Assembly (NCBI GenBank): GCA_030390025.1
Contig: CM059431.1
Span: forward strand, 94,986,001-95,050,000
Reading direction: 5' to 3'
Origin: Squalus acanthias
Taxonomy: Eukaryota
DNA: 64,000 nt
A program made the translations under genes and the position numbers. The notes under the pieces were generated by a model. The model saw only the letters and a list, made by a program, of their open reading frames with translations, was not told where the DNA came from and ran no database searches. Numbering within the stretch: position 1 is the first letter of the stretch; the number at the start of each line of letters is the position of its first letter. Positions 2,711 to 58,365 of this stretch are shown here, one piece after another.

Positions 2711-4220
2711 ATTTACTCTGACACTCCAATCCTTTTTTAATAAAGGTGAACATACCATTTGCTTTCCTAATTGCTTGCTGTACCTGCATGTTACCTTTCA
2801 GTGACTCGTGTACAAGGTCACCTAGGTCCCTCTAAATACCAGCATTTCCCAATCTCTCACCATTTAAAAAATATTCTGCTTTTCTATTTTTCCTACCAAA
2901 GTGGATTACTTCATATTTCTCTACAGAATATTCCATGTGCCATGTTCTTGTCAACTCTGTTTTCTGTCCGTTTTCCAATCCTCAAGCCATGCTAATATAT
3001 TACCCCTAATCCCATGAGCCCTAATTTTATATAATAACCTCTTGTGTGGCACCTTTTTAAATGCTTTCTGAAAATCTAAATACACTACATCCACTGGTCC
3101 CCTCTTATCTACCCTGTTAGTTACAACCTCTAAAACCTCTATTAGATTTGTCCAACATGAATTCCCTTTCATAAATCCATGTTGACTATGCCCAATCATA
3201 TTATGATTTTTTAAGTGCCCTGTTACCACGTCCCTAGTAATAGATTTTAGCATTTTCTCTACTGTTGATGTCAGGCTAACTGGTCTATAGCTCCCTGTTT
3301 TCTCTCTCCCTCCTTTCTTGAATAGCAGGATTACATTTGCTACCTTGCAATCCATGGGGATGGTTCTAGAATCTAGGGAATTCTGGAAGATCAAAACCAA
3401 TGCATCCACTGTCTCTGTAGCCATCCAGGATGTAGGCCATCAAGTCCAGGGGATTTGTTGCCTTTTAGTCCCGTTATAGAAATTATAGACCTGTTTGTCG
3501 AACATCTGTTGTGAGGAAGCTATTTGAATCTATAATTAAGGACAGAGTGACTGAGAACTTAGTGGAATTTGAGCTGATTAGAGAGAGTCAACATGGATTT
3601 GTAAAGGGTAGGTTATGTCTAACAAACCTAATTCAAGTAGTAGACAGGGGAATGTCTATGGATGTAGTTTATATGGACTTCCAGAAGTAATTCGATAAGG
3701 TTCCGCATAAGAGACTGTTTGCTAAAATTAAAGGTCATGGAATTGAAGGGAAATTATTGACCTGGTTAGGGGATTAGTCAGGTAGTAGATGATAGAGAGT
3801 AGCAATAATGGGTATGTACTTGAATTGGAAGGAATTGAGTGGTGTCCCTGTTCTGGGGCCTCAACTATTCACTATATTTATTAATGACTTAGATAACACA
3901 ATAGAGAGCCATATATCATAATTTGCACAATAAGTGGCATAGTGTGGATAGGAGCATAAAATTACAAAAAGACATTGGTAGATTAAGTGAGTGGGCAAAA
4001 ATGTGTCAGATGGGATTTCAATGCAGGTAAGTGTGAGGTCAACCATTTTGGACCAAAATAGGATAGATTTGAGTATTTCTTAAATGGTGAAAAGCTACAA
4101 ACAGTGGAGGTCCAAAGAGATTTTTGGGGGATATGTACACAGATCACTAAAATGTAGCAGTCAGGTACAAACAATAATCAAAAAGGCTAATAGAATGTTA
4201 GCCTTTATATCTAGAGGGCT

Positions 4221-6805
4221 AGCAAAAGACAAGGCTGAAGCATTCGCAACCACCTTCAGCCAGAAGTGCCGAGTGAATGATCCATCTCGACCTCTTCCTG
4301 AGGTCCCCACCACCACAGAAGCCAGTCTTCAGCCAATTCAATTCACTCCATGGGATATCACGAAAAAGCTGAGCGCACTGGATACTGCAAAGGCTATGGG
4401 CCCCGAGAACATCCTGGCTGTTGTGTTGAAGACATCGGGGGAGAAATTCGGTATCGCCCCGTTTGGGGCGCAATTATCGGCCGGGCACAAAGTTTAGCGC
4501 CTGGCGTTAATTATCGCCTCAAACTGCAAACTTGGCTTTTATCGCCCCTGGAGGCGATTGGAGCACTAAATCAGGCACTACACACCTCTCTTAAGGTGCT
4601 AACGCCGAGGAGTGAGGCGCTACCTCAGAGTGCTGGCGAAGCTCATGTGATGTCAGTCAGCAATGGAACACAGACACACTGGCGCCGGCTAGTTCTTAAA
4701 GGGGAGGATCGATCTTGCTCTCCATCCACACCCTACTCATTGCAGCCTTGAATCTTGGCCTGGAGAGACCTGTACATCAAATCTGCTGGAAAGAACAATG
4801 GAGAGGCCCAGGGAAAGAGCTCAGAGTGCAGCCCCCAAAATCTCTTCTAAATCGATGCAAGGAAGGTCAAATCAAAATGAACCTGAAAAGTGCTGCTCAG
4901 TACCCAAAACTCCTTCACACAGAGTTGAATCTCTCCAGAAGTCTCTCTCTCTCTCTCAGAGTGCGTGGTGCAAAAATATCACCGACAAAAAAAGGCAGGA
5001 AGCGGTCGCCTTTAAATAGCGCTCCCCAGTCCCTTCCTGACTGCAAAATGTTCCCCTAACCTGTTGTTGCTAGAGGCAGGTGGAAAGGCAGGGGGTGCCA
5101 CTCAATATCCGGTCCGGGGCGCTACCGGGGCGTTGCACGCTCGACTGACATCACGATCTGCGGGCGCAGGAGATCATGGCAGTAGTGTTTAGCGCCGCAA
5201 CAAATTGTCTGGTCAATTTCACGAGCGGCGCAAACATTGGCGCGCCCGGGCGCTAGTTGCTTTGCGCCCCATTAGCGCCCTCTTAAGGCTCTAATGGGAG
5301 GCACAAAGCAACCAAATTTTTCCCCCCTGTGCTCCAGAGCTAGCCGCGCCTCTAGCCAAGCTGTTCCAGTACAGCTACAACACTGGCATCTACCCGACAA
5401 TGTGTAAAATTGCCCAAGTATGTCCTGTCCACAAAAAGCAGGACAAATCCAATCTGGCCAATTATCGCCCCATCAGTCAACTCTCAGTCATCAGCAAAGT
5501 GATGGAAGGTATCATCGACAATGCAATCAAGCGGAACTTACTTACCAATAACCTGCTCACCAATTCTCAGTTTGGATTCCGCCAGGACTACTCGGCCCCA
5601 GACCTCATTATATTTTGGTCCAAAGATGGACAAAAGAGCTGAATTCCAGAGGTGAGGTGAGAGTGACTGCCCTGGACATCAATGCAGCATTTGACCGAGT
5701 GTGGCATCAAGGAGCCCTAGTAAAATTGAAGTCAATGGGAATCAAGGGGAAAACTCTCGACTGGCTGGAGTCATACCTAGCACAAAGGAAGATGGTTATG
5801 GTTGTTGGAGGCCAATCATCTCAGCTCCAGGACATCGCTGCAGGAGCTCCTCAGGGCAATGACCTAGGCCCAACCATCTTCAGCTGCCTCAACAATGACC
5901 TTCCCTCCATCATAAGATCAGAAATAGAGATGTTTGCTGATGATTGCACAGTGTTCAGTTCCATTCTCAATTCCTCAGACAATGAGGCAGTCTGTGCCCA
6001 CATACAGCAAGACCTGGACAACATTCACACTTGGGCTGATAAGTGGCAAGTAACTTTCACACCACACAAGTGCCAGGCAATGACTATCTCCAACAAGAGA
6101 GATTCTAACCAGTGCCCCTTGCCATTCAACGGCATTACCAGTGCCGAATCCTACACCTTCAACATCTTGGGGGTCACCATTGACCAGAAACTTAACTGGA
6201 CCAGGCACATAAATACTGTGGCTACAAGAGCAGGTCAGAGGCTGGATATTCTGCGGCGAGTGTCTCACCTCCTGACTCACCAAAGCCTTTTCATCACCTA
6301 CAAGGCACAAGTCAGGGGTGTGATGGAATACTCTCCACTTGCCTGGATGAGTGAAGCTCCAACAACACTCAAGATGTCAACACCATCTAGCACCTTAAAC
6401 ATTCACTCCCTCCACCACTGGCGTACCGTGGCTGCAGTGTGTACCATCTACAAGATGCACTGCAGCAACTCGCCAAGGCTTCTTCAGCAGCACCTCCCAA
6501 ACCCACGACCTCTTCCACCTAGAAGGACAAGGGCAGCAGGCGCATGGGAACACCACCAGCTCCACGTTCCCCTCCAAGTCACACACCATCCTGACTTGGA
6601 AATATATCGCTGATCCTTCATAGTTGTTGGGTCAAAATCCGGGAACTCCCTTCCTAACAGCACTATGGGAGTACCTTCACCACTTGGACTGCAGCGGTTC
6701 AAGGTGGCGGCTCACCACCACCATCTCAAGGGCAATTAGGGTTGGGCAATAAATGCTGGCCTTGCCAGTGCCGCCCACATCCCATGAATGAATTAAAAAA
6801 AATAA
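4221..6805 (+). mobile_element. LINE-X (CR1-group LINE, clade not assigned), 5'-truncated, RT plus 3' UTR
   Basis: ORFs 5400..5642 and 5615..6613 (ALDINAAFDRVWH, GAPQG, MFADD). 3' end gggcaataaatgctggccttgccag...gaatgaatt followed by an A run. Interrupted by the MITE at 4437-5326. Confidence 0.85.
4437..5326. mobile_element. Family-A Harbinger-type MITE
   Basis: TIRs gggggagaaattcgg / ccaaatttttccccc; body similar to 1824-2710. TSD not clear. Confidence 0.85.
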
Positions 6806-7204
6806 AGGGCAGGCATTTTTGCTGCAGCTACACAAAGCCCTAGTTAGACCACATCTGGAATACTGTGTACAGATCTGGGCATCACACCTTAGAAAGGATA
6901 TATTTGCCTTGGAAGGAATGCAAGCAGGATACACCAAAATGTTACCAGGGCTTCAAGATTATGCAGCGATTATGTAAACTAGGCTTGTATTCCCTGGAAT
7001 ATAGAAGGGTTAAGTGGTGATTTGATTGGGGTTTTTAGGATTTTTAAAGGAATTGACAGGATAGAGAGAATTTTTTTCCACTGGTGGGAGAGCCCACGAC
7101 AAGGGAACCTTAAAATCAGAGCCAGGCCATTCAGGAGAGAAGATAGGAAACATTTCTACACACAAAGGGTGGTGGAAATGTCAAACTCTCTCCCACAAAA
7201 TGCA

Positions 7205-7587: not shown

Positions 7588-8346
7588 TAATGACTATCTC
7601 CAACAAGCGAGAGTCTAACCACCGCCCCATGGCATTCAATGGCATTACCATCGCCGAATCCCCCACCATCAACATCCTGGGGGTCACCATTGACCAGAAA
7701 CTGAACTGGACCAGCCACATAAATACTGTGGCAACAAGAGCAGGTCAGAGGCTAGGTATTCTGCGGCGAGTGTCTCACCTCCTGACTCCCCAAAGCATTT
7801 CCACCATCTACAAGGCACAAGTAAGGAGTGTGATGGAATACTCTCACTTGCCTGGATGAGTGCAGCTGCAACAACACTCAAGAAGCTCGACACCATCCAG
7901 GACAAAGCAGCCCATTTGATTGGCACCCCATCCACCACCTTAAACATTCACTACCTCCACCACCGGCATACCATGGCTGCAGTGTATGCCATCTACAAGA
8001 TGCACTGCAGCAACTTGCCAAGGCTTCTTCAGCAGCACCTCCCAAACCCGCGACCTCTTCCACCTAGAAGGACAAGGGCAGCAGGCGCATGGGAACACCA
8101 CCACCTCCAATTTCCCCTCCAAGTCACACACCATCCTGACTTAGAAGTATATTGCCGATCCTTCATCGTCGCTGGGTCAAAATCCTGGAACTCCCTTCCT
8201 AACAGCACTGTGGGAGTCCCTTCACCACATGGACTGCAGCGGTTCAAGAAGGTGGCTCACCACCACCTTCTGAAGGGCAATTAGGGATGGGCAATAAATG
8301 CTGGCCTTGCCAGTGACGCCCAGATCCCATAAGCAATTTTTTTTTA
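7588..8346 (+). mobile_element. LINE-X 3' fragment
   Basis: ORFs 7578..7859 and 7856..8284 (INILGVTIDQKLNW, KSWNSLP) and the same 3' UTR as the other copies. Confidence 0.9.
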
Positions 8347-9459: not shown

Positions 9460-11640
9460 GCTTGAATATATTTAATGACTTGGCCTCAACTACCTTCTGT
9501 GGTAGAGAATTCCACAGGTTCACCACTCTCTGGGTGAAGAAATTCTTCCTCATTTCTGTCCTAAATGGCTTACCCGTTATCCTTAGATTATGACCCCTGG
9601 TTCTGGACTCTCCGACCATCAGGAACATTCTTCCTGCTTCGAGTCTGTCAGAATTTTATATGTTTCGATGAGATCCCCTCTCATTCTTCTATACTCCAGC
9701 GAGTATAAGCCCAATCGACCCAATCTCTCCTCATATGTCATTCCTGCCATCCCAGGTATCAGCCTTGTGAATCTTCGCTGAGCTCCTTCCATGGCAAGAA
9801 CATCCTTCCTCAGATAAGGCAACCAAAACTGCACACAGTACTCAAGATGTGGTCTCACCAAGGCCCTGTACAACTGCAGCAGGACATCCCTGTTCCTATA
9901 CTCAAACCCTTTCGCTATGAAGGCCAACATACCATTTGTCTTCTTTACCGCCTGCTGCACCTGCATGCTTACTTTCAGCGACTGGTGCACAAGGACACCC
10001 AGGTCTCGTTGCACTTCCCCTTCTCCCAATCTATTGCCATTCAGATAATAGTCTGCCTTTCTGTTTTTGACACCAAAGTGGATAACCTCGCATTTATCCA
10101 CATTATATTGCATCTGCCACGCTTCTGCCCACTCACTCAACCTATCCAAATCATCCTGGAGTTTCTCGGTATCCTCCTCGCAGCACACACTCCCACCCAG
10201 CTTTGTGTCATCTGCAAACTTGGAGATATTACATTTAGTTCCCTTATCTAGATCATTAATGTATATTGTGAATAGCTGGGGTCCAAGGACCGATCCCTGC
10301 GGTACCCCACTAGTCACTGCTTGCCACTCGGAAGAAGACCCATTAATTCCTACTCTCTGCTTATTTCTCAGTTCTACCCATACAGATTCTGCATCATCAG
10401 AGCTAATATCCTTCCTTTCAATTGTGTTAATTCCCTCTTTAACCAGCAATGCTACCCCACCTCCCTTTCTTTTTTGCCTATCTTTCCTAAATATTGAATA
10501 ACCCTGGATGTTGAGTTCCTGGAGCCATGTTTCTGTAATCCCAATCAAATCGTATTCATTTACCTCTATTTGCGCAGCTAATTCATCCACCTTGTTCCGA
10601 ATGCTCCTTGTATTAAGTCACAAAGGGGGAAAAATTCAGTTGGTTGCGCCTCCCGTTAGCGCCTTAAGATGGCGCTAATGGGGCGCAAAGCATCTGGCGC
10701 CCAGGCGCGGCGAAGTTTGCGCCGCTCGCGAAATTAACTAGACATTTTGCGGCGGCGCTAAACACTACTGCCACGATCTCCTGCGCCGGCAGATCGTGAC
10801 GTCACTCGAGTGTGCAACGCCCCGGTATCGCCCCGGAGCGGATATTGAGTGGCGCCCCCTGCCTTACTGCCTGACGCTAGCAACGACAGGTTGAGGGGAG
10901 CGTTCTGCAGTCATGTAGGGAAAGGGGGAGCGCTATTTAAAGGTGACCGCTTCCTGCCTTTTATTGTTGGTGCCATTTTTGAACTACACATTCTGAGAGA
11001 GAGAGGGAGAGACTTCTGGAGAGATTCAACGTTGTGTGAAGGAGTTTTGGGTACTGAGCAGCACTTTGCAGGTTCATTTTGATTTGCCATTCCTTGTATC
11101 GATTTAGCAGAGACTGTGGGGGCATCACTCTGAGCTCATTGCCTGGTACTCTCCATTGTTCTTTCCAGCACATTTGATGTGCAGGTCTCTCCAGGCCGAG
11201 ATTCAAGGCTGCAATGAGCAGGATGTGGATGGAAAGCAAGATTAACCATCCCCTTTAAGAACTGGCCCGTGCCATTGTGTGTGTGTTCCATTGCTGACTG
11301 ACATCAGATGAGCTTCGCCAGCGCTCTGAGGTAGCGCCTCGCTCCTCGGCCTTTGCGCCTTAAGACAGGTGTGAAGCGCTTGATTTAGCGCTGCAATCAC
11401 CTCCAGGGGCGATAAAAGTCAAGTTTGCAGTCGGTGGCGATAATTAGCGCCAGGCGCTAATCTTTGCGCCCGGCCGATAATTGCGCCTCAAATGGGGCGA
11501 TACTGAATTTCTCCCCCAAAGCCTTCAGGCTTGTTTTTTTAACGCTCTCAGACCTATGTGAATTATTATTTACTGTGACCATGTTTGATTTAAACCGTTG
11601 AGTTCTTTGCCTTCTACCTTTGTTTTTCTCCTTCAACTGC
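9460..11640 (-). mobile_element. CR1 LINE with a large internal deletion, interrupted by a family-A MITE
   Basis: ORF 9619..10590 fuses the APE N-terminus (ITETWL...VWVELRN) directly to the RT C-terminal half ([16 protein letters not shown]). Near-identical to the CR1 at 24061-25910. Confidence 0.9.
10625..11517. mobile_element. Family-A Harbinger-type MITE (reverse orientation)
   Basis: TIRs gggggaaaaattcag / ctgaatttctccccc and TSD AAA (10622-10624 and 11518-11520). Confidence 0.9.
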
Positions 11641-12919
11641 ACAGTCACCTTATATAGGTTAAAAAAAAGTAGAGTATTGAAAGAAAATCAAACATTTGTG
11701 CAGTTTCATCCCCAGTTTAATAACGACAATGTCCATGATGCAAAACTGGCATAAATTGACAGCCTCATACAGACACGTCAGAAGGAAGGTTCACTTGGAA
11801 AGTGGAAAAAACCATGCTACGTAATATGGGATGCTCTTGTGAGGTTTGGTTTACGGCCTGTTGTTGGCAGAGTAAAAAAACTTCTTTATGCATCTGACCT
11901 TGCTACAGCTGGTCTGGAAGGGCTTGATGCGGATACAGTGGGGTAAATTTTTGGAGACTCCGCTACCAGTGCAGAGTCTCGGTCAATGAGAAATGGATGA
12001 AAATCTAGGAGCACCGCAAATTCAGCATGCTAATGTCTACAGGCAGTTTGCTGCTCCTAGCTCTCGTTGAGTGAGCATGACTCGTTTACAGTACCGAGTC
12101 TCCAAACATCCATCCCTGTGTGTAGAAAAGCGGAAAAAATCTTTCATTTCCCAACACTGACACTCAGTCAAATGCTGCCTTGATGTCAAGGGCAATCACT
12201 CTCACCTCACCTCTGGAATTCAGCTTTTTTTTCCATGTTTGAACCAAGGCTGTAATGAGGTCTGGAGCCAAGTGGTCCTGGCGGAACCCAAACTGAGCAT
12301 TGGTGGGCAGGTTATTGGTGAGTAAGTGCCACTTGATAGCACTGCCGACAACACCTTCCATCACTTTGCTGATGATTGAGAGTAGACTTATTAGACGATA
12401 ATTGGCCGGGTTGGATTTGACCTGCTTTTTGTGGACAGGACATACCTGGGCAGTTTTCCACATTGTCGGGTAGATGCCAGTGTTGTAGCTGTACTGGAAC
12501 AGCTTGGCTAGAGGCACAGCTAGTTCTGGAGCACAAGTCTTCAGCATGACAGCTGGGATGTTGTTGGGGCCCATAACATTTGCTATATCCAGTGCGCTCA
12601 GTGCTATCACATGGGGTGAATTGAATTGGCTGAAGACTGGCTTCTGTGATGGTGGGAACCTCAGGAGGAGGCCGAGATGGATCATGCACTCAGCACTTCT
12701 GGCTGAAACTTCAGTCTTGTCTTTTGCTAGCCCTCTAGATATAAAGGCTAACATTCTATTAGCCTTTTTGATTATTGTTTGTACCTGATGCTTCAGCCTT
12801 GTCTTTTGCACTTACATGCTGGGCTCCGCCATCATTGGGGATGGGGATATTCATGAAGCCTCCTCCTCCCGTTAGTTGTTTAACTGTCCACTACCATTCA
12901 CAACTGGATGTGGCAGGAC

Positions 12920-13492
12920 CCTGGTGAGACTACACCTGGAGTACTGTGTACAGTTTTGGTCTCCTTACCTAAGGAAGGATATACTTGCCATAGAGGGAGT
13001 GCAACAAAGGTTCACCAGACTGGTTCCTGGGATGGGGGGATTGTACAATGAGGACAGATTGAGTAGACAAGGCCTATATTCTCTAGAGTTTAGAAGAATG
13101 AGAGGTGATCTCATTGAAACATGCAAAATTCTTACAGGGCTTGACAGGGTAGATGCAGGGAGGATGTTTCCCCTGGCTAGGGAGCCTAGAATCAGGGTTC
13201 ACAGTCTCAGAATAAGGGGTCTGCCATTTAGGACTGAGATGAGGAGAAATTTCTTCACTCAGAGGGTGGTGAATCTTTGGAATTGTCTACCCCAGAGGGC
13301 TATGGAAGCTCAGTCGTTGAGTATATTCAAGACAGAGATCGATAGATTTTTAATATTAAGGAAATCAAGGGATATGGGGATAGTTCAGGAAAGTGGAAAT
13401 TAGGTAGAAGATCAGCCATGATCTTATTGAATGGCGGAGCAGGCTCGAAGGGCCAAATGGCATCTTCCTGCTCCTATTTCTTATGTTCTTAT
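12920..13492 (+). mobile_element. CR1 3' end inserted in LINE-X
   Basis: LEYCVQFWSPY...RRMRGDLIE, FFTQRVVNLWN, and a 3' tail ending ttcttatgttcttatg. Confidence 0.9.
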
Positions 13493-14851
13493 GACTGCAG
13501 AGCTTTGATCTAATCTATTGGTTGTGGGATCGCTTCGCTCTGTCTATGGCATGCTGTTTCCACTGTTTAGCATGTATGTAGTCCTGTGCTGCACCTTCCC
13601 CAGGTTGGCACCTCATTTTTAAGTATGCCTGGTGCTGCTCCTGGCATGCTCTTCTGCACTCCTCATTGAACCAGGGTTGGTCCCCTGGCTTGATGGTAAT
13701 GGTAAAGTGAGGGAAATGCCAAGCCATGAAGTTACAGATTGTGGTGGAATACAATTCTGCTGCTTTTGATGGCCCACAGCGCCTCATGGATGGCCAGTTT
13801 TGAGCTGTTAGATCTGTTCCGAATCTATGCCATTTAGCACGGTGGTAGTGCCACACAACACGATGGAGGGTGTCCTCAGTGTGAAGACGGGAATTCGTCT
13901 CCACAATGCCTGTGCGGTGGTCTTTGCTACCAATACTGTCATGGACAGATGCATCTGCGACAGGTAGATTGGTGAGGACAAGGTCAAGTAGGTTTTTCCT
14001 TCGTGCTGGTTCTCTCACCACCTGCCACAGACCCAGACTGGCAGCTATGTCCTTCAGGATTTGGCCAGCTCGGTCAGTAGTGGTGCTACCGAGCCATTCT
14101 TGGTGATGGACTTTGAAGTCCCCCACCAAGACTACATTTAGTGCTTCTTCCAAGTGGTATTCAACATGGAGGAGTACTGATTCATCAGCTGAGGGAGGGC
14201 GGTAGGTGGTAATCAGCAGGAGGGTTCCTTGCGTATGCTTTACCTGAAGCCATGAGACTACATTGGGTCCGAAGTCAATGTTGAGGACTCCCAGGGCCAC
14301 TCCCTCCCGACTGTGTCGCCACCTCTGGTGGGTCTGTCCTGCCGGTGGGACAGGACATACCCAGGGATAGTGATGGAGGAGTCTGGGACATTGGCTGAAA
14401 GGTATGATTCTGTGAGTATGACTATGTCAGGCTGTTGCTTGACTAGTCTGTGGGACAGTTCTCCCAATTTTGGCACAAGCCCCCAGATGTTAGTGAGGAG
14501 GACTTTGCAGAGTCAACTGGGCTGGGTGTGCCATTGTCGTGTCCAAAGCCGTTGCCTCGGTCGATGCCGGGTGGTCCGTCCGGTTTTATTCCTACTATTG
14601 TTTTTCGTTGCCATTTGGTACAACTAAGTGACTTCAGAGGGCAGTTAAGAGTCAACCACATTGCTGTGGGCGTGGAGTCACATAGAGGCCAGACCAGGTG
14701 AGGACGGCAGATTTCCTTCCCTAAAGGACATTAGTGATCCAGATGGGTTTTTACGACAATCCAGTAGTTTCATGGTCACCATTACTGATACTAGCTTTTT
14801 ATTCCAGATTTATTTTATTAACTGAATTTAAATTCCCCAGCTGCCGTGGTG

Positions 14852-14927
14852 GGATTTGAACTCACGTCTCTGGATCATTAGTCCAAGCCTCTAGGATTAC
14901 TAGCCCAGTGACATAACCACTATGCTA
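14852..14927 (-). promoter_or_regulatory. Type-2 RNA polymerase III internal promoter (A and B boxes) of the LINE-X head
   Basis: Minus strand A-box TAGCATAGTGG (14927-14917) and B-box GAGTTCAAATCC (14863-14852). Confidence 0.7.
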
Positions 14928-15015
14928 CCCTACCCCAAAAGTATTGCAGTAACTTAGTTTACAGAGTTGGTTAGTTGCTTTGAGTTTGAACCTAACGCTT
15001 GCTATTTCATTTTAG

Positions 15016-15312
15016 GGCTTTACAATGAACCATCAATAACTGTGGCACCTAAGGATGAAGTCCAGTATGGAACTGAGGTGAATCTAACCTGCTCTTCCAG
15101 TAACGGTTATCCAAAGCCAGAAGTTGAGTGGTACAATAAAACTGGAGATGTTCCTTTTGAAAAGGATGAGACAAACACCAGATGCGATCCTGTCAACCAC
15201 TTGTGCAACGTTACCAGTGTCCTGAGGGTCAGAGTTACTACAGAATGTGTTATAATCTGCTCCATAATAAACTCCAGCCTTCAAGACAATAAAACGTCAG
15301 CGTATCATCTCC
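15016..15312 (+). CDS. Exon encoding a CD80-like (C2-set) IgC domain of a B7-family protein (CD276/ICOSL-like)
   Basis: Acceptor ttcattttag and donor c|gtacgt; 297 bp, phase 1-1. Encodes LYNEPSI...NLTCSSSNGYPKPEVEW...LCNVTSVLRV...IICSIIN, typical B7 IgC motifs. Confidence 0.85.
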
Positions 15313-16083
15313 GTACGTAACCATGTTAGGATACATTGCATGTTTAAACAATCTATGTCTTGATATAACACAGCAATTATATTTCAATATTTTGGTGGCA
15401 GCATCATTCATATTTGTTGGATGCAAATTCTATTATGATGGACTCACTAAAGAAAGATTCCTTATACCACATGCGCTCAGGACACAGCCCACTGGATTTT
15501 TGGGTTAATCGGTATTTTTGACCGGAAAATTGCAGAAGATTACGGCAACACTTATGTGATATTCCTTCATTTCTCATGGAGAAATTGTGGGCTATTGTGG
15601 ATCTGTTTGGACTCTCTGGGGAGAAATTCCCTACCTTATCGCCACCCGTTAGTGCGGCGTAATGTGGAGAAAGCGGCGGCGGCCGCTCTTCCGCCAGCTG
15701 GTGGCGGGTCCAACTGCATCCTACATTTTCGAAGTCCCGGTAGCGCTGCCGTTATGAAGTATCGCCCTGCAAAGAAAAATGGTAGAGCACGCTGACTTAA
15801 TGTCACCACGGCGAACTTTGACCCTAGTGCTGAGTTCAGTGCTGGGTCCTAAGCACGCCAGGTAAACCCAGCAAGCGGACTGACAGAGGCGCTGTCAGCA
15901 CCTCTTAAAGGGACACACAGATCTTTCAGGTAAGTTTGCATTTAAGCCTTTAGACTAGGTTTTATTTTATTTGACTGAAGTAGTGGCTTGCTGCAATAGA
16001 TGTTAAAAGTTTTTTAAATGTGTAGGGAGTGCTGCTGGATGCTTGCAAGGCCTCAGATGGTAAAGGAAGGCCTCTGAGAAGAC

Positions 16084-23244: not shown

Positions 23245-25990
23245 TTTTTATTTGTTCATGGGATCTGGGCATCGCTGGTAAGGCCAGTATTTATTGCCCA
23301 TCCCTAGTTGCCTTTGAGAAGGTGGTGGTGAGCCGCGTGGTGAAGGTACTCCCACAGTGCTGTTAGGGAGGGAGTTCCAGGATTTTGACCCAGCAACGAT
23401 GAAGAAAAGGGGATATACTTCCAAGTCAGGATGGTGTGTGACTTGGAGGGGAATTTGTAGATGGTGGTGTTCCCTTGCGCCTGCTGCCCTTGTCCTTCTA
23501 GTTGGTAGAGGTCGTGGATTTGGGAGGTGCTGCCGAAGAAGCCTTGGCAAGTTGCTGCAGTGCATCTTGTAGATGGTACACACTGCATCCACAGTACACT
23601 GGTGGTGGAGGGCGTGAATGTTTAAGGTGGTGGATGGGGTGCCAATCAAGTGGGCTGCTTTATCCTAGATGGTGTCGAGCTTCTTGAGTGTTGTTGGAGC
23701 TGCACTCATCCAGGCAAGTGGAGAGTATTCCATCACACTCCTTACTTGTGCCTTGTAGATGGTGGAAAGGCTTTGGGGAGTCAGGAGGTGAGACACTCAC
23801 TGCAGAATACTTAGCCTCTGACCTGCTCTTGTTGCCACTGTATTTATGTGGCTGGTCCACTTAAGTTTCTGGTCAATGCTGACCCCCAGGATGTTGATGG
23901 TGGGGGATTCGGCGATGGTAATGCCGTTGAATGTCAAGGGGCGGTGGTTAGACTCTCGCTTGTTGGAGATAGACATTACCTGGCACTTGTGTGGCGCGAA
24001 TGTTACCTGCCACTTATCAGCACAAGCCTGAATGTCGTCCAGGTCTTGTTGCATGGACTGTAAGAGTTTTTATAGATATGTGAAGAGAAAAAGATTAGTG
24101 AAATCAAGTATAGGTCCCTTGCAGTCAGAAGCGGGGGAAGTTATAATGGGGAACAAAGAAATGGCAGACCAATTAAATGCATATTTTGGTTCTGTCTTCA
24201 CAAAGGAGGACACAAATAACCTCCCAGAGATGTTGGAGAACATAGGGTCTGATGAAAGGGAGGAACTGAAAGACATCAGTATTTGCAGTGAAATGGTGTT
24301 AGGGAAATTGACGGGATTGAAGGCCGATAAATCCCCAGGGCCTGATAATCTACATCCTAGGGTACTTAAGGAAGTGGCCCTAGAAATAGTAGATGTATTG
24401 CTGATCATCTTCCAACATTCGATGGAATCTGGAACTGTACCCATGGATTGGAGGGTAGCTAATGTTACCCCACTATTCAAAAAAGGTTGTCGAGAGAAAG
24501 CGGGGAATTACAGACCGGTAAGCCTGACATCGGTAGTGGGGAAAATGCTAGAGTCCATTATAAAGGATGTAATAGCTGAGCACTTGAAAAACAGTAACAG
24601 GATCGGACAAAGTCAACATGGATTTACAAAAGGTAAATCGTGCTTGACTAATATACTGGAATTTTTTGAGGATGTAACTGGGAAAATAGATAAGGGAGAA
24701 CCAGTAGATGTGGTATATTTGGACTTTCAAAAGGCTTTCGATAAGGTCCCACATAAGAGATTAGCGTGTAAAGTTAAGGCACATGGGATTGGGGGCAAGG
24801 TATTGACTTGGATAGAGAACTGGTTGGCGGACAGAAAGCAAAGAGTAGAAATTAATGGGTCTTTTTCTGAGTGGCAAGCAGTGACTAGTGGGGTACCGCA
24901 GGGATCGGTCCTTGGACCCCAGCTATTCATAATATACATTAATGATCTAGATAAGGGAACTAAATGTAATATCTCCAAGTTTGCAGATGACACATAGCTG
25001 GGTGGGAGTGTGTGCTGCGAGGAGGATACCGAGAAACTCCAGGATGATTTGGACAGGTTGGGTGAGTGGGCAGAAGCGTGGCAGATGCAATATAGCGTGG
25101 ATAAATGCGAGGTTATCCACTTTGGTGTCAAAAACAGAAAGGCAGACTATTATCTGAATGGCAATAGATTGGGAGAAGGGGAAGTGCAACGAGACCTGGG
25201 TGTCCTTGTGCACCAGTCGCTGAAGGTAAGCATGCAGGTGCAGCAGGAGGTGAAGAAGGCAAATGGTATGTTGGCCTTCATAGCGAAAGGGTTTGAGTAT
25301 AGGAACAGGGATGTCCTGCTGCAGTTGTACAGGGCCTTGGTGAGACCACACTTTGAGTATTGTGTGCAGTTTTGGTCGCCTTATCTGAGGAAGGATGTTC
25401 TTGCCATGGAAGGAGTTCAGTGAAGATTCACAAGGCTGATACCTGGGATGGCAGGAATGACATATGAGGAGAGATTGGGTCGATTGGGCTTATACTCGCT
25501 GGAGTACAGAAGAATGAGAGGGGATCCCATCGAAACATATAAAATTCTGACAGGTCTGGACAAACTAGATGCAGGAAGAATGTTCCCGATGGTCGGAGAG
25601 TCCAGAACCAGGGGTCATAATCTAAGGATAAGGGGTAAGCCATTTAGGACAGAAATGAGGAAGAATTTCTGCACCCAGAGAGTGGTGAACCTGTGGAATT
25701 CTCTACCACAGAAGGTAGTTGAGGCCAAGTCATTAAATATATTCAAGAATGAGTTAGGTATATTTCTTAAAGCTAAAGGTATCAAGGGATATGGGGAGAA
25801 GGCAGGTACAGGGTACTGAGTTTGGATGATCAGCCATGATCTCATCGAATGGCGGAGCAGGCTCGAGGGGCCGAAAGGCCTACTCCTGCTCCTATCTTCT
25901 ATGTTTCTATATTATCTGAGGAGTTGCGAATGGCACTGAACACTGTGCAGTCATTAGGGAACATCCCCATTTCTGACCTTATGTTGGAGG
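23245..25990 (-). mobile_element. LINE-X 3' fragment (23245-24060 and 25911-25990) split by a CR1 insertion
   Basis: ORFs 23248..23649 and 23797..24054. LINE-X resumes at attatctgaggagttgcgaatggcactg. Confidence 0.85.
24061..25910 (+). mobile_element. Young CR1 LINE, 5'-truncated, full RT domain plus 3' UTR
   Basis: ORFs 24032..24997, 25010..25423 and 25448..25819 are in one frame separated only by stops. Tail ttctatgtttctat. Confidence 0.95.
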
Positions 25991-26019
25991 GATGGTCATT
26001 GCAATTATTGTATCCATTG

Positions 26020-39770: not shown

Positions 39771-39779
39771 CTTAGTTAT

Positions 39780-46809: not shown

Positions 46810-49500
46810 TTTGCAGGAAACTTGGTTGAGAGGTGATGATACCTTACCCTTAAATGAAGCCTCCCACCTGACTATACATTCCACCACCTTCCCCGTTCAG
46901 ACCGCCATGGTGGCGGTGTGGCTCTCATCACCAAATCACAACTTGGTCTGTCCCCCTAGTCCTCCGGCACTTTCTCCTCCTTTGAGCATCTCGCCTTATT
47001 CCACCTCTCTCACCTCTCATTTAAAATTCTCGGGGGCAAAAATTGGCTCGCGGTCCCTTTGGGGCGCTAACTTCGCCGGGGTGCTAAAGTTAGCGCCTAT
47101 GCCCGAAATTGAATGGTAGCGCCCCAAGCAGGAGGCGGGGCACTACAGGAAGCATTCCTCCTCCCTCTTGGAGTGCTTAAACTCAATATCACGGCGCTAC
47201 GTGCAGCAGCGCCACGCGCGCCGGCACGTAGCGCCGCGGTACTGCAGGTCTCCCTCCCCTAATTAAAGGGGAGGCGCCAAGCGCAGCGCACACCGGGGCC
47301 CTGCTGGACCACCGGCGAGCGGGGTGCCGGCAAACGAGCTTGGCACTCAAGGAGTGCCGGGCTGATGGATCGCGGCCGGCACCCCGCAGGAGGAGGCCAG
47401 AGGGGGGCAGATGCTGGCAGGCGGCCCAAAAATAATTGCCGCCCGGCACCTGCCCTTTAATTTACGCTGCCCCAGCCGCAGACACGGCACCCTGATCCTG
47501 TCGGACATAGCGTCCGGCAGTAGGTCAGGGGGCATGAGCTAAATTTGTGGCTAGGACGCGAGCAGAGCGCTGCGCACGGCAATAACGTCATCGCCGGAGG
47601 CGCAGCACCGTGGGGCACTACCGCCTACTGCCACCGGTAACCAGGAGGCGTTAGCGGCTCTGCGCCCGGGTGCTAGTTGCTTTGTGCCTCGCTAACGGGA
47701 GGCGCAAAGCAACCGAATTTTTCCCCCTCGTTCTCTAACGCCCACCCAAGTACCATAAAATTTTTATTTTCAAGATATCTTCACGGCTTTCCTCCCTCAG
47801 CCTCTGCACCAAGCGACTTCTCATCCTTAGTGATTTCAACCTCCATCTCAATTCCTCATGCTCTCTCTCCTCTGAGTTCACTGCCCTCCTATCCTCCCTT
47901 AATCTCTCCCACCATGTAAACTCCTCAACCCATATTCACAGCCACCCCCTCGACCTTGCCATCTCTTGTGGCCTCGCTATTCCCATCGTGTCAATCGCAG
48001 ATAAGGCCATTTCTGACAAGGCCATCTCTGACCACTTCCTCGTATCGCTCTCCATCACATTCCCCTTCCACGCCCCCGCCCCCACCCCCCACCCCCAAAC
48101 CTACTTCCTTCTGTATCCACCCCTGGAAAAAACTCTCTCCCAACTCTCTTACAACTGCACTTATGAAATCCCAACTGTCCAACCTTTGGCCCTCCATTCA
48201 GCACAACATTTCTGCAGCTACCGATCTGCTCAACCACACCCACACCACCACCTTTGATGCCCTAGTCCCTATTAAAACAATTACTCTCTCTCACCCTGGC
48301 CGTTCCCCCTGGTACAGCCATCATCTTCACTCCCTTAAGTCCAAGGGACGCAGACTTGAACGGGTATGGTGGACAATTGGTTCAGCCATTCACCGCCAGA
48401 TCTGGCTGGACCACATAAAACATTATCAGGTCCTGCTCTCGTCTGCCAAAACTGCTCACTATTCCAGAATAATTCTGGAATGCAAAGATAAACCTAGGCT
48501 TCTATTCTCTACTGCTAGCCGTCTTCTTAAACCCCTCTCCCCGTCTCATCCACCCTCACCTCCAACAAGTGTGAGGAGCTCATGGACTTCTTTGTCTCTA
48601 AGATTGAGACCATCTGTTCAGCTGCCTCTGCCACTTCCCTTCCTTCCCCTAGCCCACCAGGCCAAACTTCCTTGAAGGTTCCACCCTGCCCTAGCCCTGA
48701 ACTTACATCTTTCTCCAGTTTCTCTCCAATCTCCCCTCATGACTTCCCCGCGCTCATCTTGTCCACTTCCTGCTCCCTCGACCCTATTCCCACCAAACTG
48801 CTGACCACCCAACTTCCTTTTCTGGCTCCCGTGTTAGCTGATAATGTTAATGGTTCTCTCTCCTTAGGTACTGTCCCCCTCTCCCTCAAATCTGCCATCA
48901 TCACCCCTCTCCTCAAAAAACCAACCCTTGAGCCTTTCGTCCTAGCAAACTACTGCCTCATCTCCAACCTCCCTTCCTCTCCAAAGTCCTTGAACATGTT
49001 GTCGCCTCCCAAATCCGCGCCCATCTTTCCCGGAACTCCATGCTTGAATCCCTCCAATCAGGTTTCCGCCCCTGCCACAGTACAGAAACGGCTCTCATCA
49101 AAGTCACAAATGACATCCTTTGTGACTGTGACAAAGGTAAACTATCCCTCCTCTTCCTTCTTGACTTGTCTGCAGCCTTTGACACGGTTGATCACTCCAT
49201 CCTCCTCCGACGCCTCTCCACCGTTGTCCAGCTGGGTGGGACTGCACTCGCCTGGTTCCATTCTTATCTATCTAATCGTAGCCAGAGAATCACCTGCAAC
49301 AGCTTCTCTTCCCACTCCCACATCATTACCTCTGGTGTCCCCCAAGGATCTATCCTTGGCCCCCTCCTATTTCTCATCTACATGCTGCCCTTTGGCAACA
49401 TTATCTGAAAACACAGCGTCAGTTTCCACATGTACGCTGACGACGTCCAGCTCTACCTCACCACCACCTCTCTCAACCCCTCCACGGTCTCTAAATTGTC
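46810..49500 (+). mobile_element. L2 LINE ORF2 (APE to RT), decayed, interrupted by a family-B MITE
   Basis: QETWL, ISDHFLV, LDPIPT, QSGFRPCHSTETAL, LLDLSAAFDTVDH, GVPQGSILGP and YADD. Confidence 0.9.
47032..47726. mobile_element. Family-B MITE (reverse orientation)
   Basis: TIRs gggggcaaaaatt / aatttttcccc and TSD CTC. Confidence 0.85.
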
Positions 49501-51430
49501 AGATGCATCTGTCCATGACAGAATTGGTAGCAGTGATGAAGTCCCGTCTTCACAGTGAGGAAACCCTCCATTGTGTTGTGTGGCACTACCACAGTGCTAA
49601 TTGGGAAAGATTCAGAACAGATCTAGCAGCTCAAAAATGGGCATCCATGAGGCACTGTGGGCGATCAGTAGCAGCAGAATTGTATAACATCACAATCTTT
49701 AACCTCATGGCCTGGCATATCCCTCACTCTACCATTACCATCAAGCCAGGGGATAAACCCTAGTTCAATAAAGAGTGTAGAAGAGCATGTCAGGAGCAGC
49801 ACCAGGCATACCTAAAAATGAGGTGCCAACCTGGGGAAGCTGCAACAGAGGATTACATGCATGCTAAAAAACGGAAGCAGCATGCGATAGACGGAGCCAA
49901 GCAATCCCATAATCAACGGATCAGATCAAGGCCCCGACAACATCCCGGCTATCTTGCTGAAGACTTGTGCTCCAGAACTAGCCGCGCCTCTAGCCAAGCT
50001 GTTCCAGTACAGCTACAACACTGGCAACTATCCGACAATGTGGAAAACTGCCCAGGTATGTCTGTCCACAAAAAGCAGGACAAATCCAATCTGGCCAATT
50101 ACTGCCCCATCAGTCTACTCTCAATCATCAGCAATGTGATTGAAGGTGCGTCGACTGTGCTATCAAGCAGCACTTACTCACCAATAACCTGCTCACTGAT
50201 GCCCAGTTTGGGTTCCGCCAGGACCACTCGGCTCCAGACCTCATTACAGCCTTGGTCCAAACATGGACAAAAGAGCTGAATTCCAGAGGTGAGGTGAGGT
50301 GAGAGTGACTGCCCTTGACATCAAGGCAGCATTTGACCGAGTGTGGCATCAAGGATTCAATGGGAATCAGGGGGAAACTCTCCACTGTCTGGAGTCATAT
50401 CTAGCACAAAGGAAGATGGTTGTGGTGGTTGGAGGTCAATCATCACAGCCCAGGACATCACTGCAGGAGTGCCTCAGTGCAGTGTCCTAGGCACAACCAT
50501 CTTCAGCTGCTTCATAAATGACCTTCCCTCCATCATAAGTTCAGAAGTGGGGATGTCCGCTGATGACTGCACAGTGTTCAGTGCCATTCGCAACTCCTCA
50601 GATAATGAAGCAGTCCATGCCCGCATGCAGCAAGACCTGGACGACATTCAGGCTTAGGCTGACAAGTGGCAGGTAACATTCGCGCCACACAAATGCCAAC
50701 CAATGACTATCTCCAACAAGCGAATGTCTAACCACCGCCCCTTGACATTCAATGGCATTACCATCGCCGAATCCCCCACCATCAATATCCTGGGGGTCAC
50801 CATTGACCAGAAACTTAACTGGACCAGTCACATAAATACTGTGGCAACAAGAGCAGGTCAGAGGCTAGGTATTCTGCAGTGAATGTCTCACCTCCTGACT
50901 CCCCAAAGTCTTTCCACCATCTACAAGGCACAAGTCAGGAGTGTGATGGAATACTCTCCACTTGCCTAGATGAGTGCAGCTCCAACAGCACTCAAGGAGC
51001 TCGACACCATCCAAGACAAAGCAGCCCGCTTGATTGGCACCCCAACCACTTCCTTGAACATTCACTCCCTCCACCATCGGCGTACTGTGGCTGCAGTGTG
51101 TACCATCTACAAGATGCACTCGCCATGGCTTCTTCGGCAGCACCTCCCAAACCCGCGGCCTCTTCCACCTAGAAGGACAAGGGCAGCAGGCGCATGGGAA
51201 CACCACCACCTCCAAGTCACACACCATCCTGACTTGAAAGTATATCGCCATTCCTTCATCGTCGCTGGGTCAAAATCCTGGAACTCCCTCCCTAACAGCA
51301 CTGTGGGAGGACCTTCACCACATGGACCGCAGCGGTTCAAGAAGGCTGCTCACCACCACCTTATCAAGGGCAACTAAGGATGGGCAATAAATGCTGGCCT
51401 TGCCAGCGATGCCCTGATCCAATTTAACAA
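49501..51430 (+). mobile_element. LINE-X, end of APE to 3' UTR, with internal deletions
   Basis: ORFs 49818..50279, 50299..50490, 50343..50657 and 50970..51377, plus the family 3' UTR. Confidence 0.9.
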
Positions 51431-51650
51431 AAACATTTTTGTTGTTGTTGTTCAATATTAATTATTTGGTTGATTTTCTTGCAGAATTGTTTTTGTCAAC
51501 CCTCTTTTACCCCCAAGAATACAATAGATGACTGGTGTCTGGAGACAATTGTTGGCTATTCTTTGTGCAGATGCTCCACCATGTGGCTCAGATCTGAATT
51601 TACTTCACACATATATTGGGAGTTTGATCTCTGCCAAGTTGCAGCACATA

Positions 51651-57934: not shown

Positions 57935-58365
57935 GGAGTCAGCTGTAGCTCAGTGGCAGCACTCTTGCTTCTGAGTCAGATAGGTCATGGGTTCAAATCC
58001 CACTCCAAAGACTTGAGTAAAAAATCTAGGATGATACTGGAATGTGGTGTACTGCACTGTCAAAGGTGCTGTCTTTCAGATGAGATGTTAAACCAAGGGC
58101 CCATCTGCCCTCTCAGGTGGATGTAAAAGATCACGGCATTATTCTGCAGAAGAGCTGAGGGATTCTCCCTAGTGTCCTGGCCAATATTTATCCCTCAACT
58201 AACGTCACTAAAACAGATTATTTGGTCATTATCACATTGCTGTATGTGGGACCTTGCTGTGCACAAATTGTCTGCCGTGTTTCCTACATTACAACAGTTC
58301 AAAAAAGTACTTAATTGGTGGTAAAGTGCTTTGGGAAGTTATGAGGTCGTGAAAGGCGTATGTCT
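57935..58365 (+). mobile_element. tRNA-derived DeuSINE (SacSINE1-like)
   Basis: A-box tagctcagtgg, B-box gggttcaaatcc, and Deu-domain-like tgtcctggccaatatttatccctcaac...attatcacattgctg. Confidence 0.75.

Follow-up and report, generated by a model that had tools for sequence, protein, structure and literature searches.

A tRNA-like head at the 5' end of elasmobranch Zenon LINEs: a candidate internal promoter for RNA polymerase III in an ORF1-less retrotransposon

The minus strand of the window (the whole stretch of 64,000 nucleotides of Squalus acanthias DNA analyzed here) carries, from position 14936 down to 12164, a LINE that, judging from sequence comparison, is a decayed, 5'-complete copy of an elasmobranch Zenon element. 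This is a single-ORF LINE, encoding an endonuclease and a reverse transcriptase (RT), that is broken and 3'-truncated and has no ORF1; head, endonuclease and RT follow one another contiguously. The element begins with a tRNA-derived head (14835..14936, minus strand), delimited by an Rfam tRNA match, the shared 5' ends of contigs and seven Zenon consensuses, within which the A box, TAGCATAGTGG, lies at 14917..14927 and the B box, GAGTTCAAATCC, at 14852..14863, both on the minus strand (the former found by regular expression with the general consensus motif, the latter by regular expression and the Rfam tRNA alignment). The head is followed on the same strand by a linker and a body (14633..14834), a 5'UTR module that is common to a short SINE-like derivative and is attested by foreign contigs, proteins and the seven consensuses, and then by a LINE-specific leader that extends to the endonuclease (14513..14632), is defined by translations and has a homologous stretch that the whale-shark proteins P0005 and P0004 read through. 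The leader contains an in-frame ATG at 14622-14620, which is specific to this copy and reads ACC in the Squalus Zenon consensuses (by eye), and an in-frame TGA at 14515-14513.

The domain of the AP-type endonuclease, together with the beginning of the EN-RT linker, occupies 13492..14512 of the minus strand, as indicated by Pfam, the ORFs and a two-segment tblastn match of P0005; Exo_endo_phos_2 is matched on 14219-13914 in a minus-strand ORF (E 6e-11), and the frame shifts near 14297-14312 and is interrupted by a stop codon at 13514-13512. At 12911..13491, on the plus strand, the element is interrupted by an oppositely oriented 3' fragment of an unrelated LINE, which matches 25905-25330, 9461-9868 and other places in the window, not LINE-X (as the family was called in the preliminary description), and is foreign to Zenon. 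The linker continues at 12164..12910 of the minus strand and leads into the N-terminal part of the RT, both identified by homology to copy B (see below) and by Pfam, with RVT_1 matched on 12430-12167 in a minus-strand ORF (E 8e-8); this part includes a foreign fragment of about 63 nt at 12728-12790 flanked by 19-nt direct repeats. Thus, the AP-type endonuclease and the RT lie on successive minus-strand ORFs by Pfam, as in the single-ORF layout of Zenon. The endonuclease frame opens at about 14512, approximately 425 nt after 14936, and no ORF of at least 50 aa with a family match was found between the 5' end and this frame, which agrees with the original observation that there is no room for an ORF1. 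Another identity, the HE1 SINE/HER1 LINE pair (V-SINE), both names of which are listed in a table of a review, was considered and rejected; this pair may fit the unrelated insert at 12911-13491.

The segment 14927-14852 of the minus strand matches the pattern TRGCNNARTGG ... GTTCRANNCC, which follows the general consensus motif and spacing rules for A and B boxes; there are two matches to this pattern on both strands of the whole window and none in 200 mononucleotide shuffles, so that the head is beyond chance expectation. The Rfam tRNA model aligns with 14928-14848 (minus strand), with a score of 20.7 bits (E 0.11) that falls short of the gathering score of 29; because this alignment covers model positions 7-64 only, the head lacks an acceptor stem. 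ARAGORN called no tRNA, and Rfam at gathering thresholds reported nothing in the window, a profile consistent with a head of the SINE type and not with a tRNA gene. Pattern, shuffles and Rfam score together bear out the tRNA-like 5' head with A and B boxes that had been described from the letters alone. A role of this head as an RNase P processing signal is disfavored, given the span of the Rfam alignment and the fact that no acceptor-stem pairing was seen. The arrangement is that of a type-2 unit: an A box followed by a B box at a workable spacing (64 nt between their starts, 14927 and 14863) and close to the start. In terms of SINE2 elements, the tRNA-derived 5' head with its two boxes is present, but the element is not short (about 100-700 bp) and non-coding; it encodes EN-RT, and of the forms seen only the deletion derivative described below (P0007) conforms to this size and coding status.

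Four sister copies, all recognized by homology and all 5'-truncated, are found in the window: copy B (49500..51431, plus strand), which has the family 3' end with AATAAA in the tail; copy C (5328..6785, plus strand), with an upstream piece at 4153-4433; copy D (7589..8330, plus strand); and copy E (23251..24055, minus strand), from which a further piece, 25911-26000, has been split off by another LINE. The headed copy lacks about 1.1 kb of its 3' end (homology to copy B stops at 12160, whereas B continues to 51431) and hence the 3' terminus itself; three of the four sisters finish in short A-rich runs, with T9 following in one of the four, and runs of T5-T9 occur within about 30 nt after three of the four 3' ends. 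Positions 1-979 of the element, used as a query, match nothing else in the window; a single copy here, 14936-12164, thus carries the 5' head attributed to the family. The idea that the LINE specifically targets a SINE for insertion was also considered and rejected, the 3' flanks of the four sister copies being unrelated.

Evidence from beyond the window came from aligned contigs, drawn from runs with a share above 0.05, and from proteins. In run X1, the matches of 185 contigs have a common 5' limit at about 14929, beyond which the flanking sequences are dissimilar (agreement 0.40), and contigs from other organisms continue through the head and linker into the body (X6 records 31 and 32, X11 record 16). 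Proteins P0007-P0011 translate the linker and body module; the whale-shark protein P0005 extends from the 3' edge of the body through the leader into the endonuclease, P0010 has the body joined to the endonuclease, and contigs from three organisms (1, 4 and 2 contigs) join 14538 to 14633. The aligned contig pieces, the longest of which are about 250 nt, include none that spans head to endonuclease. The window copy lacks about 14 nt that most other copies have after 14633, which accounts for the many loose contig ends before this position; these ends mark no family boundary. The short derivative, represented by P0007 and P0008, combines the head, the 5'UTR and the Zenon 3' tail in a SINE-like build. 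Neither a 30-nt endonuclease pattern, compared with contigs of metagenomes and genomes, nor a 22-nt pattern from the body, compared with genome and viral contigs, had any match; the 303-aa ORF found one weak metagenome locus (L001, 43% identity over 30 residues), which was left out of the analysis, and no related locus in viral contigs. Contig depth dips at 14520-14621; depth is one figure per contig, so nothing is read from it or from the ratios of depth between head, body and endonuclease. Cover by run X15, which is only guessed to be RNA, is no sign of expression.

Is the head, then, a property of the family? We compared the window copy, by eye and with short exact motifs, to the first 400 nt of the published Zenon consensuses listed in PMC13343379 (Supplementary Table 2, 1,004 rows; Genome Biol Evol 2026). 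All seven elasmobranch Zenon consensuses, from four sharks and one ray (CarCar, HypSab, RhiTyp, ScyCan and SquAca-1/-2/-3; 2.9-3.3 kb), have this head, linker and body at their start, so that LINE-X is identified as elasmobranch Zenon and the head as a family feature; the head is found in none of the three non-elasmobranch Zenon consensuses (two from hagfish and one from coelacanth). The first 400 nt of SquAca_Zenon-1, -2 and -3 are nearly identical to the window head, linker, body and leader (by eye and with four exact motifs); a 15-nt body motif from the window recurs in all seven elasmobranch rows, and the head motifs in the SquAca rows only. Six exact B-box variants searched across the 1,004 rows matched three rows, all of elasmobranch Zenon, and therefore the heads are no general artefact of the consensus library. 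The claim that the head belongs to the LINE would have been undone by full-length copies lacking it, and the published elasmobranch consensuses, every one of which starts with the head, have upheld it. The consensus 5' ends could in principle have been over-extended through the short derivative, which shares the 5'UTR; the longest single genomic Zenon insertions nearly equal the consensuses in length (3322 vs 3314, and 3299 vs 3288 and 3293).

Elasmobranch Zenon is thus a CR1-group element of about 3.3 kb with a single EN-RT ORF, no ORF1 and an A-rich tail. According to PMC13343379, Zenon elements universally lack ORF1, belong to the CR1 group, have a poly-A tail that is unique among CR1-group elements and make up 3-7% of shark genomes (4.4% in the spiny dogfish and 6.7-6.8% in the whale shark and great white shark). 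The main text of that paper contains no occurrence of tRNA, promoter or polymerase III, and so the head, although present in its data, is undescribed there. We consider it highly probable that a full-length Zenon consists of a tRNA head with A and B boxes, about 200 nt of conserved linker and body, and an ORF from about 320-420 nt, and that loss of the ORF leaves a short element, composed of the head, the 5'UTR and the 3' tail of Zenon, that resembles an ordinary tRNA-SINE.

The second feature considered is the scarcity of T4 (TTTT) runs on the sense strand. No sense TTTT occurs in 14936-13492, 12910-12164, 49500-51423 or 7589-8330, and the first one within the span of the headed copy, at 13128, is inside the insertion 12911-13491; counting thus confirmed that the LINE-X stretches named initially are free of such runs. 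The sisters contain two in 5328-6785 (at 5613 and 6288) and one in 24055-23251 (at 23408), and these three proved to be copy-specific, as had been stated, other copies reading CCTT, TTTC, and CATT or CGAT, in this order, at the three places; that the sense strand of the window copies was T4-free in the ancestral state is supported. The other LINE, 25910-24061 (minus strand), reported as a CR1 with several sense T4 runs, has nine. A 3,283-nt composite of the element contains no T4 run, and its base content predicts 5.28; TT, however, is itself under-represented (observed/expected 0.79), and the element is T-poor (21% T). Synonymous-codon shuffles of the composite give an expectation of 2.02 (P 0.097), and dinucleotide shuffles one of 0.99 in the 1,445-nt piece (P 0.35; 0.23-0.45 per piece). 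The window background is 4.3-5.9 T4 runs per kb, and LINE-X accounts for the second-longest T4-free stretches on each strand. Among the 400-nt prefixes (by eye), TTTT is found in none of the seven elasmobranch ones vs all three from headless Zenon. The absence of T4 therefore exceeds chance only weakly, and the proposed avoidance by selection did not hold up as significant given the T-poor composition and the coding constraint (P 0.1-0.35).

These observations can be accommodated in a scenario in which the head would act as an internal type-2 promoter, with TFIIIC bound to both boxes and RNA polymerase III (Pol III) initiating at +1. Because initiation would occur at the first nucleotide of the element, the promoter would be copied into every full-length daughter, as in SINEs; with a sense strand free of T4 terminators, some of the transcripts would extend over all 3.3 kb and terminate in 3'-flanking DNA. 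Such full-length Pol III RNA would then be the template for target-primed reverse transcription and, although capless, might double as a poor but sufficient mRNA. Transcription from type-2 promoters starts 9-10 nt before the A box, and the A box of the window copy begins 9-10 nt after the element 5' end, an agreement that appears to support this scenario. Both boxes are kept in the consensus sets of four sharks and one ray, and the zero T4 runs of the composite, vs 2-5 expected, with copy-specific runs in the sisters, likewise seem to be in its favor, as does the contrast in TTTT between the elasmobranch and the headless prefixes. Several facts appear to point the other way. The AATAAA signal and the A-rich tail are those of Pol II mRNAs, which would count against Pol III, and so, in all likelihood, would the imperfect B boxes: that of the window copy has A in place of the first G of the canonical GGTTC, a variant shared with SquAca_Zenon-1 and -2, and the B box of the stingray consensus contains a gap, whereas three galeomorph shark consensuses have the canonical GGTTCGAATCC. 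Moreover, passages of Kojima 2024 (PMC10886601) give SINEs a length of 100-700 bp and tie it to weak Pol III processivity, and LINEs are described as transcribed by Pol II in parts of Kojima 2018 (PMC5786205). The 317-nt 5'UTR of the window copy shows no unusual fold (z -0.39 vs shuffles), and an IRES-like structure in it was rejected on this ground. All things considered, we regard it as somewhat less likely than not that 14936-12164 is a dead elasmobranch Zenon from a headed family in which the head drives Pol III transcription of the element. Taken by itself, the proposal that Pol III transcribes the entire element is plausible, and we would go no further than this. In its most general form, which we put forward quite tentatively, the scenario implies that elasmobranch Zenon may be an autonomous protein-coding LINE that replicates from Pol III transcripts, copies its promoter, keeps the sense strand T4-free and has an uncapped, cap-independently translated RNA, with the SINE-like partner derived by internal deletion of the headed LINE.

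TFIIIC sites can function as insulators or enhancers, and in the main rival scenario this is the role of the head: it would be a family-level feature that, when bound by TFIIIC, maintains the copy in an open or insulated state or enhances nearby Pol II activity, with the element RNA produced by Pol II from an internal 5'UTR promoter starting at +1, and Pol III making only short head-plus-body RNAs and the short derivative. This is a genuine possibility, if on the doubtful side. It is in line with the AATAAA and the A-rich tail, with the strong conservation of linker and body in seven consensuses, which could hold such a promoter, with a T4 absence compatible with chance given the composition, and with the use of Pol II by all LINEs described in the relevant parts of Kojima 2018 (PMC5786205) and Kojima 2024 (PMC10886601). 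The price is a second promoter that starts exactly at the tRNA-like +1, and neither the complete lack of T4 in 3.3 kb nor the contrast between headed and headless prefixes is explained.

Other explanations detach the head from the LINE. The autonomous element could be headless and start in the linker or body, its 5'UTR and tail having been borrowed by a tRNA SINE (the Okada-Hamada/Kojima model), in which case headed copies would be occasional SINE-LINE recombinants and the consensuses would have been extended into SINEs. There are precedents, in that passages of Kojima 2018 (PMC5786205) describe many tRNA-headed SINEs with LINE 5' and 3' parts whose LINE is headless; furthermore, a short element of head, body and tail does exist (P0007 and P0008), and no contig, at about 250 nt for the longest, joins head to endonuclease in one piece. 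However, the sole 5'-complete copy of the window is headed, as are 7/7 independently curated consensuses, the lengths of which are matched by the longest insertions, and the canonical B box occurs in no other family among the 1,004 rows; we find this explanation quite improbable. As for chance adjacency, that is, an unrelated SINE beside a 5'-truncated LINE at this locus, the presence of only one headed copy in the window would be compatible with it, but it is refuted by the body-leader-endonuclease junction in whale-shark P0005, P0010 and all seven consensuses, and its probability is practically negligible.

What would follow if the head indeed drives Pol III transcription of the LINE? Textbooks and current specialist accounts, as laid out in parts of PMC10886601 and PMC5786205, assign LINE transcription to Pol II acting at promoters in the 5'UTR, and SINE transcription to Pol III acting through heads derived from small RNAs. 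Here, by contrast, an autonomous LINE family has a SINE-type head at +1 in every published full-length elasmobranch consensus. Should this head drive the LINE, Zenon would be the first protein-coding mobile element that depends on Pol III, a natural test of the length limit and translatability of Pol III transcripts, and a new, simpler route to the birth of SINEs, with the usual order of events, in which a head is added to a LINE fragment, reversed. Even if the RNA is made by Pol II, SINE bodies derived from LINE 5' regions extend beyond the RTE and Vingi clades, and a headed LINE can parent a SINE-like element.

Among known systems, R2 and other rDNA-specific LINEs, in which translation is cap-independent, offer a working analogue only, that is, a LINE RNA without a Pol II promoter of its own that is uncapped and yet translated. 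They differ from Zenon in belonging to another clade and in being site-specific, co-transcribed by Pol I and released by ribozymes, with no tRNA-type internal promoter; passages of Kojima 2018 (PMC5786205) describe their dependence on rRNA gene transcription and 5' ribozymes. The elasmobranch Zenon LINEs of PMC13343379 are the same element as the one described here (ORF1-less, about 3.3 kb, with an A-rich tail), and the window copy differs from their consensuses in being broken and 3'-truncated. The short Zenon derivative is built (head, 5'UTR, 3' tail) like the tRNA SINEs with LINE 5' and 3' parts, such as Bov-tA, AfroSINE, Mar-1 and CoeSINE4, treated in parts of PMC5786205, where the partner LINEs are headless and come only from the RTE and Vingi clades, whereas the Zenon LINE is itself headed and is a CR1-group element. 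A deletion of this kind is also seen in Persaeus, a lepidopteran Zenon derivative in which, according to sections of PMC6740152, the 5'UTR and ORF start are joined to the ORF end, 3'UTR and poly-A; Persaeus is presented there as devoid of homology to tRNA, 5S or 7SL and of any Pol III promoter, whereas the shark and ray derivative inherits the parental tRNA head. Finally, the TRIMp3 elements Cassandra, Helenus and Ajax likewise combine a Pol III promoter derived from a small RNA with a class of retrotransposons normally made by Pol II; as portrayed in parts of PMC10886601, these are non-coding LTR elements of 311-1263 bp, and their autonomous partners are argued to need Pol II.

The LINE family represented by the copy at 14936-12164 on the minus strand (LINE-X) can be identified from its sequence as elasmobranch Zenon. 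In the available text of a 2026 survey (PMC13343379), Zenon is an ORF1-less lineage found in elasmobranchs, coelacanth and hagfish, and the sole lineage of the CR1 group with a poly-A tail; in the window, 3 of the 4 sister 3' ends terminate in short A-rich runs behind an AATAAA-bearing tail. Runs of T5 to T9 lie at most ~30 nt downstream of three of these four ends (51425-51441, 6770-6830, 8320-8345), in excess of the background of ~5 per kb, a comparison that involves four cases only. The genomic share of Zenon is 6.8% in the great white shark, 6.75% in the whale shark, 4.4% in the spiny dogfish, 3.2% in the catshark and 0.7% in two batoids (PMC13343379), and copies with an intact ORF2 number 1/1419, 3/612 and 1/294 (PMC13343379 supplement, in which the entry for SquAca_Zenon-1 is garbled).

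The window DNA is vertebrate, with many interspersed repeats. The Zenon copy, all parts of which lie on the minus strand, begins with a tRNA-like head (14936-14835), followed by a linker and body of ~200 nt (14834-14633), a leader of ~120 nt between body and endonuclease (14632-14513), an AP-type endonuclease (14219-13914; Pfam Exo_endo_phos_2, E 6e-11) and, after a linker, the first part of the reverse transcriptase (12430-12167; Pfam RVT_1, E 8e-8). The copy is dead, with a TGA in frame at 14515-14513, a stop at 13514-13512 and, between them, a frameshift near 14300. Its 3' break is at ~12160-12164, and sister copies extend 1.1 kb further. The copy is interrupted by 581 nt of the 3' part of an unrelated LINE in the opposite orientation (12911-13491, plus strand) and, at 12709-12809, by a ~63-nt foreign fragment flanked by 19-nt direct repeats. 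This fragment, which derives from the other LINE family and reads ..IIKKANRMLAFISRG.., lies within the Zenon ORF; the copy at 4153-4433 has the identical junction, with the foreign sequence extending further upstream, and the common junction looks like template switching at microhomology that was inherited by a subfamily. An open frame at 14958-15320(+) that adjoins the Zenon 5' end reads like an immunoglobulin-type domain (..VNLTCSSSNGYPKPEVEWYNKTG..), and the copy is probably located in a host-gene intron.

The 581-nt insertion belongs to a second LINE family, one rich in T (31% on the sense strand; 12911-13491 and 9461-9868, plus strand; 24061-25910, minus strand), one copy of which is thus nested in a Zenon copy while another splits the Zenon copy at 23251-24055(-); the family may be a shark HER1-type LINE. 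At 48531-49932(+), an L2/CR1-like reverse-transcriptase ORF continues stop-free into a Zenon endonuclease fragment from 49500, yielding a 410-aa open frame that bridges two LINE families at a chimeric junction; the Zenon copy involved (49500-51431, plus strand) is devoid of 339 nt found in the copy at 14936-12164.

Is the head a feature of the family or of a single copy? Within the window, the copy at 14936-12164 is alone in extending to the 5' end: for positions 1-979 of the element there is no second match, the other four copies being 5'-truncated. The curated CR1-group consensuses in Supplementary Table 2 of PMC13343379 were compared over their first 400 characters, that is, the 5' end. The preliminary description had raised the question whether other full-length copies begin with the head, and the answer is in its favour: all seven elasmobranch Zenon consensuses, from great white shark, Atlantic stingray, whale shark, catshark and spiny dogfish (three entries), open with an A box and a B box, after which come the same linker, body and leader. 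The three dogfish entries are, by eye, near-identical to the window copy, and within that table the window head motifs match these entries only, which makes a squaliform shark the probable source of the window; no head like that of elasmobranch Zenon is present in the two hagfish and one coelacanth Zenon entries. Six exact B-box variants, run against 1,004 rows, match in three rows, all of them elasmobranch Zenon, so the heads are no routine artefact of the library. Consensus length is about that of the longest single insertion in the genome (insertion vs consensus: 3322 vs 3314; 3299 vs 3288 and 3293), which, together with the contiguous window copy and the B-box specificity, makes over-extension of the consensuses via a short derivative unlikely. 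The head has been retained at the extreme 5' end of a LINE lineage in four sharks and one ray.

Further evidence on the head comes from sequencing runs and gene models, although the supplement is what settles the question. Between 20 and 55% of the 31-mers of 13500-15000 are present in runs of at least seven organisms, and contigs from three DNA runs of three organisms cover 29 of 30 bins. Single contigs span head, linker and body (e.g. 14679-14863 and 14717-14892), others reach from the endonuclease into the leader (14402-14605), and 14538 is joined to 14633 by 1, 4 and 2 contigs in the three runs, none of which yields a contig running from head to endonuclease in one piece. In one run (X1), 185 contigs diverge from the element at ~14929 into dissimilar flanks, a position that marks a common 5' terminus. 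Exonised LINE-X fragments are present in gene models of Heptranchias perlo, Heterodontus francisci and Rhincodon typus. The whale-shark protein fragment P0005 takes in the final 26 nt of the body, crosses the leader and enters the endonuclease, and P0010 joins body to endonuclease. In P0007 and P0008, linker and body lead straight into the 3' tail of LINE-X, with P0008 adding the 3' part of the head; this build indicates that a short SINE-like derivative, consisting of head, 5'UTR and Zenon 3' tail, exists beside the full-length LINE.

The presence of A and B boxes in the head, as originally claimed, is borne out by a match to the pair at 14927-14852(-) using regular expressions of the consensus motifs (one further match in the window; none in 200 shuffles). 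A second pair, at 57946-58000(+), shows no sequence relationship to the Zenon head and probably belongs to the head of a different SINE. The Rfam tRNA model scores the head at 20.7 bits, under threshold and over model positions 7-64 only, and ARAGORN calls no tRNA in the window, a SINE-type profile, with the promoter boxes retained and the cloverleaf gone. Between the 5' end and the start of the endonuclease frame lie ~425 nt, an interval that accommodates no ORF1, again as proposed.

The sense-strand counts of TTTT (T4), the Pol III terminator in vertebrates, also proved correct, with none in the LINE-X stretches singled out initially, three in sister copies, each of them copy-specific, and nine in the 1,850 nt of the unrelated LINE at 25910-24061(-). 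Across the window, T4 runs occur at a background density of 4.3-5.9 per kb; on each strand, the T4-free stretches of LINE-X are exceeded in length only by a 41-bp satellite array (34699-39772; 124 copies, 86% match), which is also the source of the pronounced skew in GC and AT at 34-40 kb. Because LINE-X is T-poor (21% T) and already depleted in TT (0.79), dinucleotide shuffles expect just ~1 T4 per 1.4 kb (P 0.23-0.45 per piece). For a 3,283-nt composite, base content predicts 5.3 T4 runs vs 0 observed; the proposed codon shuffling, applied to the 3.2 kb reading frame, goes in the anticipated direction (2.0 expected, 0 in the composite) but is not significant alone (P 0.097). The T4 gap is real and suggestive, short of significance on its own. 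By eye, TTTT occurs in the 400-nt prefixes of 0/7 headed vs 3/3 headless Zenon consensuses.

So which polymerase makes the full-length RNA? Since the head can be passed on only by RNAs starting at or before it, the template RNA would start at ~+1 of Zenon, and a type-2 Pol III promoter initiates at ~+1. That Pol III makes the full-length RNA is a tangible possibility, if short of an even chance, and is supported by the T4-free sense strand and by the division between headed and headless prefixes. A Pol II internal promoter could initiate at the same position, in which case the head would act as a TFIIIC site or would drive short RNAs only; this alternative is just slightly less likely. Pol III RNA is uncapped and would require cap-independent translation; the candidate in-frame ATG of the window copy is ACC in the dogfish Zenon consensuses and the Zenon 5'UTR folds no better than shuffles, all of which counts against Pol III. 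Furthermore, in the available text of the specialist literature, the SINE size of 100-700 bp is tied to weak Pol III processivity (Kojima 2024, PMC10886601) and LINEs are said to use Pol II (Kojima 2018, PMC5786205; Kojima 2024, PMC10886601). Pol III transcription of Zenon is an attractive, testable hypothesis rather than a result.

The Zenon family is already known, whereas its tRNA head appears to have gone unremarked: tRNA, promoter and polymerase III have zero occurrences in the main text of PMC13343379, and in the available part of the whale-shark preprint there is one mention of Zenon and none of tRNA. In the full-text literature searched, which left subscription journals and Repbase notes outside, no autonomous LINE is described as carrying a tRNA-derived head. 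As far as the available texts go, SINEs that combine a tRNA head with LINE 5' and 3' parts are well known, from the RTE and Vingi clades only, and their partner LINEs are headless (Kojima 2018, PMC5786205); Persaeus, a lepidopteran derivative of Zenon that retains its 5' and 3' parts around a deletion, is explicitly without a tRNA part or Pol III promoter (PMC6740152); and the TRIMp3 LTR elements that do have Pol III promoters are all short and non-coding (Kojima 2024, PMC10886601).
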